The notes under the pieces: model-generated
Seen by the model: the letters and a program-made list of their open reading frames with translations, nothing else
Told to the model about the DNA's origin: nothing
Databases searched by the model: none
Shown: in pieces, positions 19,303 to 35,549 of the stretch
How positions within the stretch are numbered: position 1 is the stretch's first letter
How the letters are laid out: every line of letters begins with the position of its first letter
DNA from: a virus
Lineage: Duplodnaviria > Caudoviricetes
Strand: one strand, 5' to 3'
IMG/VR virus record: IMGVR_UViG_3300032677_000029
Location: 148 to 64,147 of that record
DNA length: 64,000 nt
Position numbers and translations under genes: made by a program

Positions 19303-19732
19303 TGTTCACTGTGTTCACTCATGTTCACTGGTGAGTGAACAGACTTTTGGTGCGATGCAACACTCGCAAACCCTTGTTTTATATACTCTTTCTTTCTTTT
19401 ATTTATTATAATATTTAGTAGTGTTCACTTGTTCACTCACTTTTGAAATGTATGAAGGGTAAAATTTCCTGAGCCTTTACATTGTTAAGTTTGATACTGT
19501 CTGACAGTACGGCAGAAAGACCCTTTTCTTAGGTGTCATACTTTTGTTCACGAGTGAACATGACCCATTAAACTCTCGTAACCTATTGAATCCACAAGTA
19601 AATACCTTGTTCCTAAGCGAGTGAACATTGGTGAACAAAACCCCCAAACGAGTGAACAAAGTAGGCGAAGCCTTAACACAGTAAAGGGAGAGGAGAAATA
19701 AAAAAAGATGTTTTGAGTTTCTCGAGTGAACA
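19303..19732. other. Candidate replication origin: 12 TGTTCAC/GTGAACA iterons with an AT-rich tract
   Basis: TGTTCAC at 19303, 19312, 19322, 19422, 19430, 19545; GTGAACA at 19335, 19554, 19621, 19631, 19652, 19726; AT-rich ~19375-19420; no credible ORF. Confidence 0.65.
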
Positions 19733-19837
19733 AATCCCCCAAACATGAAACCAGTTTTTACAAGAAGCCCACCAACTGCACAACCCCACCGAACCCGAAT
19801 ACCGACCTGATTAAACCCGAGTAACCGAAAGACCCTA

Positions 19838-19866
19838 TTGACACAGCCTTGACATAGCGGTATAAT
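19838..19866 (+). promoter_or_regulatory. Early sigma70 promoter P2 (perfect consensus)
   Basis: TTGACA-N17-TATAAT. Confidence 0.9.
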
Positions 19867-20015
19867 AGAGGGGTAGAGTCGAGTTGAGTCAAGGGACACA
19901 ACAAAACCAAATACTGTCGGACAGTATTAGAAGCGGGAAACACCACGATTAAGTTCACGGGTGCAACGGGTAGGTAGCTACCCCAACAAGCTTTTAATCC
20001 TTGCCTCAATAGTAT

Positions 20016-20029
20016 CGTTCTTTAAAAAT
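20016..20029 (+). promoter_or_regulatory. boxA-like antitermination element
   Basis: CGTTCTTTAAAAAT resembles the rrn/lambdoid boxA (TGCTCTTTAACA), ~145 nt after the P2 start. Confidence 0.6.
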
Positions 20030-20038
20030 TAGTTAAAT

Positions 20039-20354
20039 GCTTAGCGGTGCGGGGGAATACAGACCCCAAACCAATGCTGAGTGCAGAGTAGGCGTAGCCT
20101 GAGTGTACGGCGAGCAGTATCTCTGCGGGTGTAATAAGTAATGGGAATGGGTAGGTTTTACTAAACCAACCGAAAAGGCGAAATACTGTCAGACAGTATC
20201 AGACCCTTAAAAACCTAACCCTTCCAACCACACTTTACTTATCCACCCCATGCCCTTAACCTCTAACAAGAACTGCGACAAACTAGCAGAGGGCAAACAA
20301 ACAAAGAGCGTTTTGAGGTCAGGTTAGAAATAGCCTGACTGATTGAGCGTTTTT
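20039..20354 (+). ncRNA. Structured leader RNA with five consecutive stem-loops
   Basis: Stems at about 20039-20082, 20083-20126, 20127-20248, 20251-20295 and 20304-20354 (GAAA tetraloop); ends at the AGGAGG RBS. Confidence 0.55.
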
Positions 20355-20368
20355 AAAAGGAGGTAGAA

Positions 20369-20464
20369 ATGAAGGAGATGTTATTAGTATGGCTTTGGGC
20401 AGTCATAGGGGTTTTTACCTATGTACTTTTTATGTGGACTTTGAAATTATTGGAGGTGTTATGA
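20369..20464 (+). CDS. Small single-pass membrane peptide (31 aa)
   Basis: Manually read MKEMLLVWLWAVIGVFTYVLFMWTLKLLEVL; strong AGGAGG RBS; ATGA overlap with the next gene. Confidence 0.65.
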   Translation: MKEMLLVWLWAVIGVFTYVLFMWTLKLLEVL

Positions 20465-20664
20465 AAAATATGTGTAGGTGTTGTGGAGATGAGTACCCTA
20501 TTGGTAGGTGGGAACTAGGCTATAAGTTTTGCCTAGACTGTGGGGTAGATATAGCAAAATCGGTGGCAGAGGGATTTACAGTAGCACCACTAAACAAATC
20601 AAACTACTACTATATCCACGACCCAAAAACCCTAAAAGAACTTAACCCTAAGAGGACAACATGA
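20461..20664 (+). CDS. C4 zinc-finger protein (DksA/TraR-finger-like)
   Basis: CRCCGDEYPIGRWELGYKFCLDC; GGAGG RBS before ATG 20461. Confidence 0.6.
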   Translation: MKNMCRCCGDEYPIGRWELGYKFCLDCGVDIAKSVAEGFTVAPLNKSNYYYIHDPKTLKELNPKRTT

Positions 20665-20870
20665 AAAAAGGTAACGACAACAAGGCTCTAATTAAAAAGA
20701 TGTTGGGAGATACGCTTGATGAGACTTTTGTACTTAGCGCCATCGAGATGTACTGCAACGAGATACTGTCAGACAGTACGGATTGGGGTAATAAATCCCT
20801 CATCAATCAAACCCTATGGCAGACGATAGCAAGTCAGAACCTAGCAATTATGGAGGAACACTACAAATGA
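20661..20870 (+). CDS. Hypothetical early protein
   Basis: 69 aa, GAGGA RBS, ATGA-coupled. Confidence 0.65.
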   Translation: MKKGNDNKALIKKMLGDTLDETFVLSAIEMYCNEILSDSTDWGNKSLINQTLWQTIASQNLAIMEEHYK

Positions 20871-21142
20871 GAGGGTACACGCAAAAGGAACGGCTAACAG
20901 TCGAACCAGTAATGACCCTCGAACAGATTGCTGACATTATGGGCATGAGTCGGGAAAGGGTGCGTCAGATAGAAGCAAGTGCATTGGGCAAGTGCCACAA
21001 GATACTACGCAGAAAGGGTTATTCCCCCGAGGATTTCTTTTCAGCCCTTAAATACACTAAACCTATCAAACCAAGCGAAACAGGCGAAGCAAGTGAATAC
21101 GAACTGATGTATGACAAGGAGGAAGAAGATGAGCGTAACTGA
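20867..21142 (+). CDS. Stand-alone sigma70 region-4 HTH protein
   Basis: MTLEQIADIMGMSRERVRQIEASALGK matches RpoD region 4.2. Confidence 0.85.
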   Translation: MRGYTQKERLTVEPVMTLEQIADIMGMSRERVRQIEASALGKCHKILRRKGYSPEDFFSALKYTKPIKPSETGEASEYELMYDKEEEDERN

Positions 21143-21395
21143 ATACAGAATGGGTAAACCCAAGACCTCTAAGGATAAACCCTTAAAGACAATTAGACAG
21201 AACTCACCCAATGAGCCAATGGAACTAACGGCTAAATTGGCGAAGGCGGACACGGCGCAAGCTAAGCGGGAACTGGTGTCGCTCGATATGGGTGGGCTTT
21301 TTTATGCGTTTGGGGAAAAGCGTAGGGCATGGCAAGGGTGGTTAAGTTATCAAGAAAACATGGGAGAAGAAAATGGCACTAAAACGACTAAATAA
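21129..21395 (+). CDS. Hypothetical early protein
   Basis: ORF with GGAGG RBS, coupled to its neighbours. Confidence 0.5.
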   Translation: MSVTEYRMGKPKTSKDKPLKTIRQNSPNEPMELTAKLAKADTAQAKRELVSLDMGGLFYAFGEKRRAWQGWLSYQENMGEENGTKTTK

Positions 21396-22690: not shown

Positions 22691-22719
22691 TTGACACAGG
22701 GGTAGCTTAGCTGTATAAT
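22691..22719 (+). promoter_or_regulatory. Early sigma70 promoter P3 (perfect consensus)
   Basis: TTGACA-N17-TATAAT; shares TTGACACAG with P1 and P2. Confidence 0.9.
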
Positions 22720-22839
22720 AGTAGTATAAGTTATAAAAGTAGTAGAAGTTAGTGGGGTCGTAGCCTAATACTGTCAGACAGTATTGGGTTTTTTGTTTAG
22801 TAGGTTTGTATTTTTTAATTTTAAAACAAGGAGAAGTAT

Positions 22840-23949
22840 ATGAGTATCAAGTTCGGAAGTTCTTTATCTTTAAACGAGTTCGCCAATGCTATCGCAACTG
22901 TTGGCTCTGATGTAACCATTATCGGTCAGGGAGAGCCCGGGATTGGTAAGTCTAGTATGTTAAAGACTGTTGCCAAGCGATTCCCTGATTACGAGCTAGC
23001 CTATATCGACTGTACCTTATTAGACCTAGGTGACTTTGCCCTTCCGTATACGGAACTGGCTTCAGGGGATAGTAACTTAAAAGTTACCAAGTTCGCACCA
23101 AACGCAAGGTTTAAATTTCAATCGGGCAAGCCTGTAATCGTTATGCTTGATGAGATTGGTAAGGCTATGAAGGCGGTTAAGAATGTCCTTCTTACCTTGA
23201 TGTTGGAAAAGCGTATTGGTGATGTAGCTTTACCCGAAGGCTCAATCGTGTTTGGTACAACTAACCTAGCAACTGATGGGGTAGGTGATTCGTTAGAGGC
23301 TCATGCTCGGAATCGTGTTTGCTTTGTGACTGTGCGTAAACCCCATGCTGGCTTTGGTGCTGATGGCTCACTCGATGCAGACTCTTGGGGTGCTTGGGCG
23401 GTTGAGAATGATATTGCACCTGAGATTATTGCGTGGGTTAAACAATTCCCTCATGCACTCGAGTCGTATACTGACCCTGCTCAAAAAGATAATGCGTACA
23501 TCTTTAACCCAACTAAGGCGGGACAGTCAGCATTTGTAACCCCTCGGTCCTTGGAGAAAGCAAGCCATATCTCTAAGAAGCGTGCATTACTGGGTGACTC
23601 TGTAACTATCTCGGCTTTGGCGGGTACTATCGGTGAGAGTGCGGCTCGTGATATGCAAGCGTTCTTTACTGTGGTAGATAAGCTACCTACATGGGAAGCA
23701 ATTATGGATAGCCCTGCAACTGCAAAAGTTCCTGATGATGCGGTAGCTAAATGTATCTTAGTGTTCTCAGCTATTACTCGTGTGGATAAGGAGTCGTTAC
23801 CTAAGTGGCTTAAGTATGCAGATAGATTAGACAAAGAACTTCAAGCGTTGTTTGCTCGTAGTGTGGTGAAGTCTTCATCTAAGCAAGCTATGGCGGTGTC
23901 CAATAAAGAGTTCGTGAAGTGGGCTACTGATAACCAATGGTTGTTTTAA
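22840..23949 (+). CDS. AAA+ ATPase (MoxR/AAA_5-like)
   Basis: GEPGIGKS Walker A, VMLDE Walker B, GTTN sensor 1, RNR Arg finger, TPRS sensor 2. Confidence 0.9.
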   Translation: MSIKFGSSLSLNEFANAIATVGSDVTIIGQGEPGIGKSSMLKTVAKRFPDYELAYIDCTLLDLGDFALPYTELASGDSNLKVTKFAPNARFKFQSGKPVIVMLDEIGKAMKAVKNVLLTLMLEKRIGDVALPEGSIVFGTTNLATDGVGDSLEAHARNRVCFVTVRKPHAGFGADGSLDADSWGAWAVENDIAPEIIAWVKQFPHALESYTDPAQKDNAYIFNPTKAGQSAFVTPRSLEKASHISKKRALLGDSVTISALAGTIGESAARDMQAFFTVVDKLPTWEAIMDSPATAKVPDDAVAKCILVFSAITRVDKESLPKWLKYADRLDKELQALFARSVVKSSSKQAMAVSNKEFVKWATDNQWLF

Positions 23950-34881: not shown

Positions 34882-35549
34882 CAGTTAAATACACATGGTC
34901 GTACTCATCAATAAACCTTTTTAAACAATGCCCACATAAGTATTATCGGCTTCGAATAGTAAAAGATATTGTTGAGCCATCAGCCGAGCACTTAAACTAC
35001 GGATTAGAAGTACATAAAGCGGCAGAAGATTATCTTGGAAAAGGCACTCCAATCCCCGAAAAGTACATCTTTATTAAAGAACACTTGGATAAGCTAAATC
35101 TTATTAAAGGCGAAAAGCTTTGCGAATATAGGATGGGACTTACCAGCAACCTAGAACCATGTGGGTTTTTTGATAAGGATGTATGGTGGAGAGGGGTCGC
35201 AGACTTGATTATTATCAACGGCGACAGAGCGTATGTTATTGATTATAAAACAGGAAAATCTGCTAAGTATGCGGATACTAAGCAATTAGAGCTTCTTTCT
35301 TGTGCCCTATTTAAACACTTCCCCGAGGTCAAAAAGGTCAAAGGTGGGTTATTATTTGTAGTTGCCAATGACCTTGTCAAAGAGAACTTTGAGGTGGATA
35401 ATGAAGGGGTATATTGGACTAAGTGGTTAGAAGATACTCAACGCTTAGAAGCGGCTATTCAAAACAATGTTTGGAATAAAAAGCCTAACTTCTCGTGCCG
35501 TTCTTGGTGTTCTATAACCGACTGCGAACATAACGGAAAGAACCATTGA
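34878..35549 (+). CDS. PD-(D/E)XK exonuclease (RecB/Cas4-like)
   Basis: WSYS...CP...G..VH...DYKTG...QL...C..C Cys motif. Confidence 0.85.
   Translation: MTVKYTWSYSSINLFKQCPHKYYRLRIVKDIVEPSAEHLNYGLEVHKAAEDYLGKGTPIPEKYIFIKEHLDKLNLIKGEKLCEYRMGLTSNLEPCGFFDKDVWWRGVADLIIINGDRAYVIDYKTGKSAKYADTKQLELLSCALFKHFPEVKKVKGGLLFVVANDLVKENFEVDNEGVYWTKWLEDTQRLEAAIQNNVWNKKPNFSCRSWCSITDCEHNGKNH

Follow-up and report, generated by a model that had tools for sequence, protein, structure and literature searches.

Antitermination through boxA and the Nus factors is textbook knowledge for rRNA operons and for lambdoid phages; to our knowledge, it is sparsely documented for other phages. In phage HK022, the put element is a promoter-proximal, cis-acting RNA of about 70 nt, made of two adjoining hairpins, that is proposed to modify the polymerase and needs neither boxA nor Nus factors. 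boxA in nascent RNA recruits NusB/NusE, and elongation complexes of the rrn and lambda-N kind become Rho-resistant (PMC12360218). NusB-NusE is reported to have a site for double-stranded RNA that is contiguous with its boxA site (PMC3177189). boxA can also promote Rho termination, as at suhB and hisG, where it stands near or inside the regulated gene (PMC12360218). The gamma-proteobacterial boxA consensus used below, GYTCTTTAANA, is that given by Baniulyte et al. (PMC5725501).

We compared with these systems the early leader of an uncultured phage from an IMG/VR viral record of 64,147 bp (completeness estimate 97%), of which 64,000 nt, the whole stretch analysed, form what we call the window. 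DNA runs containing the window stretch were lake-water and freshwater metagenomes. Gene blocks in the window were divergent, with structural and packaging genes on the minus strand and a plus-strand block at 18.5-42 kb encoding small early proteins, an ATPase, PolA, a helicase and a primase. PHROGs and Pfam scans of the proteins recognised no RNA polymerase gene in the window, so the phage appears to rely on the host polymerase, and a scan for tRNA and tmRNA genes found none. Among 50,697 phage records, none matched the leader at the nucleotide level, and in a protein search with the ATPase isolated phages matched only at <28% identity, none of them close. We conclude with high confidence that the head of the early operon carries a conserved, structured plus-strand RNA joined to a genuine-looking rrn-type boxA. 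An earlier note on this DNA had read the locus as an N-independent antitermination or processing module, or a discrete novel ncRNA, and that interpretation is partly supported by what follows.

The leader and its relatives

We retrieved 80 related loci (820 kb) via the neighbouring ATPase and detected the leader by blastn in 11 of them, at 67-80% identity over the aligned parts. An alignment of ten leaders (A1) consisted of near-identical blocks interrupted by insertions; in distant clades the intergenic sequence and the palindrome differed, yet the motifs and their order were kept. An invariant 17-mer of the core was then scanned to add leaders from viral and metagenome contigs: 21 of 25 stretches in viral contigs were leaders, the other four being chance matches in coding DNA, and the core was present in 34 of 113 stretches in metagenome contigs. 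Contigs of one genome per bacterial species gave 46 stretches, none of which had a partner motif. The final set comprised 41 distinct complete leaders, window included, all on uncultured phage contigs; these were mostly metagenome contigs of unchecked habitat, and the lake and freshwater origin given above applies to the runs with the window stretch. L085 was omitted from alignments A2 and A3, being the same as L084 in that region; L015 and L071, whose motifs lay beyond the mismatch limits, stand outside the 41 leaders, with L071 included in A1 and L015 compared by eye.

Table 1. Features of the early leader, in window coordinates.
Feature	Position	Strand	Remarks
Early sigma-70 promoter, TTGACA-17-TATAAT	19838..19866	+	12 of 12 consensus match
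boxB-like hairpin, copy 1 of palindrome family ATACTGTCnGACAGTAT	19911..19927	+	
Lineage-specific insertion, hairpin to boxA	19928..20010	+	only in L010 among 9 aligned relatives
boxA GTTCTTTAAAA	20017..20027	+	exact GYTCTTTAANA; consensus is gamma-proteobacterial and may not be the host's
P1 hairpin, stem 20039-45 / 20076-82 (GCTTAGC/GCTGAGT)	20039..20082	+	covariation
P2, stem GCAGAG/CTCTGC (20083-88 / 20121-26)	20083..20126	+	abuts P1
P3, long interrupted helix	20127..20248	+	directly after P2; palindrome copy 2 at tip (20185-20197)
Only plus-strand ORF of at least 25 aa from 19867 to ATG 20369	20250-20327	+	25 aa, without Shine-Dalgarno sequence
P4, three-way junction: P4a TGCCC/GGGCA, mini-hairpin, P4b CUGC/GCAG	20251..20295	+	1-3 nt after P3; P4a stem TGCCCT/AGGGCA at 20251-56 / 20290-95
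P5, GAAA-capped hairpin 20317-40, G-U-rich outer helix 20304-13 / 20345-54	20304..20354	+	
Shine-Dalgarno AAGGAGG and ATG of first early ORF	20357..20371	+	ATG at 20369

The perfect promoter that opens the leader (Table 1) had already been seen in the earlier note, and a promoter with no more than one mismatch in either hexamer lay upstream of boxA in all 39 leaders having upstream sequence, its -10 hexamer standing 16-156 nt from boxA. A stem of at least 5 bp ended 0-10 nt before boxA in 31 of these 39 leaders; its sequence was clade-specific, its pairing was kept and it covaried from clade to clade, and clades other than the window's did not use their own palindrome for it. Four of the 39 leaders had no room for such a hairpin, with only 11-14 nt from start site to boxA. 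Between hairpin and boxA, the window carries an insertion that is common to one of nine aligned relatives, and a metatranscriptome contig from a relative joins 19922 to 20011, i.e., lacks 19923-20010. Because this stretch is lineage-specific, the conserved RNA starts at boxA and not at the promoter.

The absence of a credible ORF over about 500 nt was borne out. The single plus-strand candidate (Table 1) was not conserved: 1-nt indels put it out of frame in relatives, and other clades lacked the ATG. The leader's minus-strand ORFs (140, 83 and 29 aa) were fragmented differently in each relative. As the frames were not conserved and the plus-strand ORF had no Shine-Dalgarno sequence, coding readings of the leader were rejected for both strands, and no conserved leader peptide combining an open frame with a start signal was found in it. 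The first early ORF encodes a 31-aa hydrophobic peptide conserved within the clade. Across clades the first gene after the leader was not the same, and the distance from boxA to the first ORF ranged from 323 to 796 nt; since the first gene differs, the element appears to serve the operon rather than one gene.

Folding on the plus strand was better for the window leader than for any of 100 shuffled controls (z = -4.56), compared with z = -1.54 and nine shuffles as good on the minus strand. The plus strand also had the lower z in seven of seven relatives, with modest values of -0.33 to -3.92 (40 shuffles each). Together with frequent G-U pairs, this asymmetry places the RNA on the plus strand, as had been suggested from the G-U pairs. 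All five stems listed in the earlier note were present, and compensatory changes, the check that it had proposed, were abundant, occurring in relatives for all helices.

In P1, 97.0% of 168 cells paired in a MAFFT alignment of 25 leaders, vs 27-47% with the partner slid, and four of seven pairs showed compensatory change on both sides. In the fraction of cells paired, the covariation score and the tally of cells altered on both sides, the alignment was equalled or exceeded by none of 500 shuffles, but in the number of pairs altered on both sides 235 of the 500 did as well. The closing G-U and adjacent C-G were invariant. Over the 41 leaders, 277 of 287 cells paired (57 of them as G-U), and the hairpin ranged from 17 to 104 nt in length. 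Inside P2 lies an internal loop of constant sequence, UAGGCGUAG facing CGAGCAGUAU, followed by a short distal stem that is CC/GG in some clades and GG/CC in others, and its interior of 13 nt in the window grew to as much as 228 nt among relatives. Its outer stem, P2a, paired in 246 of 246 cells (41 leaders) and was nearly invariant in sequence, with compensatory variants in L013 (GCAAGG/CCTTGC) and, by eye, in L015 (ATAGGG/CCCTAT). A competing pairing of CUCUGC with a second GCAGAG at 20286 was rejected, as the compensation in L013 and L015 tracked the upstream partner only.

P3, with the ACTGTCAGACAGT dyad at 20185-97, formed one end-closed domain of 34-132 nt in all 36 evaluable leaders; the remaining five of the 41 were unscored for P3 and P4a because the scoring rule missed the 5' strand of P4a. 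At the base of P3 (helix 1), 11 of 17 pairs showed compensatory change within the window's clade. An RNase III site of the T7 R type would call for a conserved irregular duplex of some 20 bp or more; the domain is long in the window's clade but shrinks to only 34 nt in total elsewhere, and the suggestion of RNase III-type processing is therefore not favoured. In P4, the pair 193/237 was UA in 15 sequences, AU in five and GC in five, and the pair 194/236 was GC in 12, CG in 11 and AU in two; all three pairs of the mini-hairpin (helix 5) were compensatory, and P4b was invariant. P1 to P4 make up a core of four adjoining helices, which has two internal loops that do not vary in sequence and helix tips that expand freely.

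The last of the five hairpins in the earlier note, P5, is real but was kept only in the window's clade (6 of 17 pairs in helices 7 and 8 with compensatory change, 12 sequences). Its outer helix includes a U-run; other clades have another hairpin after P4, without a trailing U-run, and a terminator scan flagged no canonical intrinsic terminator before the Shine-Dalgarno sequence. For the 3' domain, the RNAalifold structure of 55 pairs from 12 sequences of the window's clade had compensatory change in 22 pairs, with 95.6% of cells paired vs 37-45% when slid and 0 of 500 shuffles reaching any of five measures, the structure being derived from the same alignment used to score covariation.

Searches with Rfam 15 covariance models, which include riboswitches, ribozymes, 6S, 5S, T-box and GOLLD/ROOL among others, gave no match at gathering score in the 64-kb window and 11 related loci, and in this sense the earlier description of the RNA as novel applies. 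At E<=10, positions 19700-20500 yielded two hits (E 0.15 and E 4), far below the family gathering scores. A stretch reading CCCAUGCCC-GAAC, which we take to be locally like a 5S rRNA loop, was set aside, since it occurred in one clade only and 5S rRNA was not among the two hits.

boxA, its spacing and the surrounding early region

The boxA-like word pointed out earlier, CGTTCTTTAAAAAT at 20016-20029, contains an exact match to the published consensus (Table 1). For host inference, an exact boxA 12-mer was sought in five arbitrary genomes; with zero to two matches in each, it was uninformative. In the window, exact matches numbered two over both strands (128 kb), the other lying on the minus strand at 35072, and taken alone the window's match is weak evidence. 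boxA was, however, present in 41 of 41 leaders, exact in 30 and with a single change in 11, always at position 5 (U5-to-A or U5-to-C), and 23 of the 41 read GCTCTTTAACAA. A relaxed pattern, G[CT]TC[TA]TT[AG]A[ACG]AA, looser than the published consensus, matched 20 times on the early-gene (plus) strand of the 80 loci and never on the minus strand, with 19 of the 20 matches just downstream of a promoter as judged by eye. The spacer between boxA and P1 measured 10-12 nt in all 41 leaders, whereas every other distance varied several-fold. This fixed spacing argues for boxA and the RNA core working together as a unit.

In a sister clade (L018, L020, L022), a hairpin and boxA were followed by a different long leader, which implies that the P1-P4 core is not required for boxA function as such; boxA is the general feature and the P1-P4 core a family-specific addition. 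The sister-clade loci (L018 720-1322; L020; L022 3800-4412) had a promoter, their own palindrome ATAATGTCnGACATTAT and boxA GTTCTTTAACAA, then about 500 nt of untranslated leader without P1-P4 motifs, which may represent a second leader RNA family.

The early region of the window was further marked by a palindrome, ACTGTCnGACAGT, present in 11 identical copies between 18459 and 27167 (chance expectation 0.05); every copy falls in the plus-strand early region, and most are intergenic. Across 12 related records it had 125 copies, with a conserved 5' flank (CCAAAT) and a little-conserved 3' flank; the conserved 5' flank implies that the palindrome is directional, read on one strand. Palindromes of other clades were symmetric variants keeping the GTCnGAC core, and the palindrome sat at the P1 tip in other clades and at the P3 tip in the window's clade. 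The family, including the pre-boxA hairpin, suggests a phage-encoded binder, so that the module may not be N-independent, as the earlier note had put it. A candidate for the hairpin-binding protein is the 94-aa early product of 21111-21395, with a basic N-terminus (MTRRKK...), which tblastn found only in loci tied to the window's clade by leader or protein searches; members of that clade bear the window's palindrome. Early-operon genes at 20461-21142 encode a 67-aa CxxC...CxxC zinc-ribbon protein conserved across clades and another of 108 aa in which Pfam recognises a sigma-70 region-4 domain (PF04545, E 6e-10), both of them likely modifiers of host polymerase.

A second sigma-70 promoter (12 of 12) stands at 22691-22719, followed within 5-12 nt by -10-like repeats (TATAAG, TATAAA) and, about 45 nt after those, by the palindrome extended to a 13-bp stem with a U-run (22762-22790) before the ATPase gene. 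This layout (22691-22845), conserved in most of nine relatives, resembles a promoter-proximal pause and terminator suited to a Q-type antiterminator. Upstream of the early promoter, between it and a 162-aa gene, lies a cluster of AGTGAACA that holds 10 of the 12 copies in the window (19303-19732; 12 vs 2.6 expected by chance), with minus-strand copies predominating at its start and plus-strand copies following. It has the appearance of an operator or iteron array, and the cumulative GC-skew minimum, at about 16-18 kb, is nearby.

What the leader RNA may do

On balance, we think that the locus is an rrn-like antitermination leader using boxA and the Nus factors, whose attached RNA acts in cis as a component of that module; the Nus-dependent antitermination itself is likely. 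Host sigma-70 RNA polymerase would initiate at the consensus promoter, and in the nascent RNA a short boxB-like hairpin would form before the rrn-type boxA is exposed. boxA would load host NusB/NusE (S10) and, with NusA/NusG, give a Rho-resistant elongation complex. Such resistance would be called for by the 320-800 nt that come next, which go untranslated and contain the C-rich, G-poor stretch at 20160-20300, over which GC skew was -0.5 to -0.73 (minimum -0.73 at 20200-20279). A long, untranslated, C-rich leader is an expected Rho target, and a promoter-proximal boxA is the expected remedy. The P1-P4 RNA, 10-12 nt behind boxA, would then be where the modified polymerase, a Nus factor or a phage protein docks, a role comparable to that of boxC and the leader helix in rrn or of put in HK022. 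A helix at fixed distance might matter because the double-stranded RNA site on NusB-NusE adjoins the boxA site. The only tie of the P1-P4 core to the polymerase or Nus factors is its fixed distance from boxA. Other points also weigh against this reading: the position-5 changes of boxA in 11 of the 41 leaders, the Rho termination that boxA promotes at suhB and hisG (although boxA there lies near or inside the gene it regulates), the sister clade whose boxA has no P1-P4 core behind it, and the modest folding z-scores of relatives.

Going further, we tentatively raise the possibility, in which we place limited belief, that P1-P4 represents a new class of large phage RNA acting on the host transcription machinery. 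As a put-like element, working with an rrn-type Nus complex, it may let the polymerase read through the phage's own hairpin terminators; as a takeover RNA it may act in trans, with its synthesis protected by boxA. Under either option, if true, an rrn-type boxA would for the first time be seen outside rRNA in physical linkage, at a constant 10-12 nt, with a dedicated structured RNA.

The P1-P4 RNA could alternatively be the product itself, a stable, trans-acting ncRNA made first in infection, e.g., as a decoy or scaffold for host proteins, with boxA only helping the polymerase to complete so long an untranslated transcript, as happens with rRNA. Its architecture, with invariant internal loops and expandable helix tips, is that of a large RNA, the core is independent of the downstream gene and a consensus promoter drives it, yet a 3' end defined by a conserved terminator or processing site is lacking: which hairpin follows P4 depends on the clade, only the window's clade has the U-run, and in every case the RNA continues into the early operon. 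A freshwater metatranscriptome offered a weak hint, with three of five low-depth contig pieces from relatives falling on the leader, but DNA carry-over is possible and such contigs give neither RNA ends nor levels. We consider this explanation unlikely.

We hold it improbable that the leader is a nut-type site dependent on a phage protein, in which the hairpin would be the boxB analogue of an N-like antiterminator and further hairpin copies, spread over the early region, would reload that protein or control it. The number and identity of the palindrome copies, their directionality, the GTCnGAC core kept by the clade-specific variants and the clade-restricted basic protein all fit such a site. 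In other clades, however, the pre-boxA hairpin is not their palindrome, some leaders lack room for any hairpin, and the palindromes may just as well be DNA operators. The order of hairpin and boxA is the reverse of that in lambda nut, so that the leader shows no boxA followed by an N-binding boxB, and PHROGs and Pfam scans of the early proteins found no N homology.

Though its 5' leader position and compact three-way junction with invariant nucleotides recall a riboswitch or attenuator, P1-P4 very probably does not sense a metabolite or host factor and act through the downstream hairpin, U-run or Shine-Dalgarno sequence. In the window's minimum free energy fold the Shine-Dalgarno sequence is paired with an upstream CCUCU, and in the window's clade the U-run precedes it. 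No expression platform is conserved, however, with P5 and its U-run clade-specific, the anti-Shine-Dalgarno sequence variable and the U-run 5-7 nt away from the inner stem; the first gene also differs between clades, at varying distances from boxA, and Rfam gave no riboswitch match.

A transcript that would serve as primer or activator for an origin within the neighbouring repeats, as ColE1 RNA II does or as transcription activates T7 and lambda origins, is scarcely credible: the AGTGAACA copies in two orientations just upstream of the promoter, the nearby skew minimum and the phage's PolA, helicase and primase would suit it, but transcription is directed away from the repeats, translated early genes directly follow the RNA, GC skew also tracks gene orientation here and nothing resembles a segment forming an RNA-DNA hybrid.

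Under the preferred reading, an rrn-like Nus-factor and boxA leader with a cis-acting RNA, an uncultured phage group appears to start infection with an rRNA-like leader whose boxA is locked to an RNA absent from Rfam. If that RNA modifies the polymerase or captures a host factor, it would be a new class of regulatory RNA and also a new phage route to borrowing the cell's rRNA transcription mode. The 41-sequence alignment is sufficient to seed an RNA family, and the fixed spacing between boxA and helix offers a direct test of the double-stranded RNA site on NusB-NusE.

Comparison with known leaders

HK022 put resembles the phage leader RNA in being promoter-proximal, structured and built of directly adjoining hairpins, but is much smaller. 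Gene-repressing boxA sites outside rRNA share the same consensus, but they lie within 50 nt of the start codon, in contrast to the 323-796 nt found here. Lambda nut shares a boxA with an adjacent hairpin near the start of an early operon, where host Nus factors act and antitermination is processive; its order is boxA then boxB and it needs N, whereas the phage leader places the hairpin first, has a boxA of full rrn type and adds a large extra RNA.

As far as boxA is concerned, the closest phage counterpart is T7. T7, a lytic phage with strong host-type early promoters, has an early leader (promoters A1-A3, RNase III site R0.3, gene 0.3) in which an exact boxA, GCTCTTTAACA, stands at 813-823 (L155 514-524), between early promoter A3 (750) and gene 0.3 (925), i.e., about 60 nt after A3 and about 100 nt before the gene, in untranslated leader. 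This boxA was unannotated in the reference record, and we found no paper on it in the open literature. The T7 leader is only about 175 nt long from A3, and the search of the window leader against the phage collection found no sequence similarity.

The rrn leader of Escherichia coli (boxB-boxA-boxC; NusA/B/E/G, SuhB, S4) differs in its boxC, for which no counterpart could be defined in the phage leader, and in leading to 16S rRNA rather than to 250-600 nt of phage-specific RNA and protein genes. The two share a strong sigma-70 promoter, a non-conserved hairpin preceding boxA (the rrn order of boxB then boxA), the same boxA consensus at the very start of the transcript and a long, untranslated structured RNA after it.
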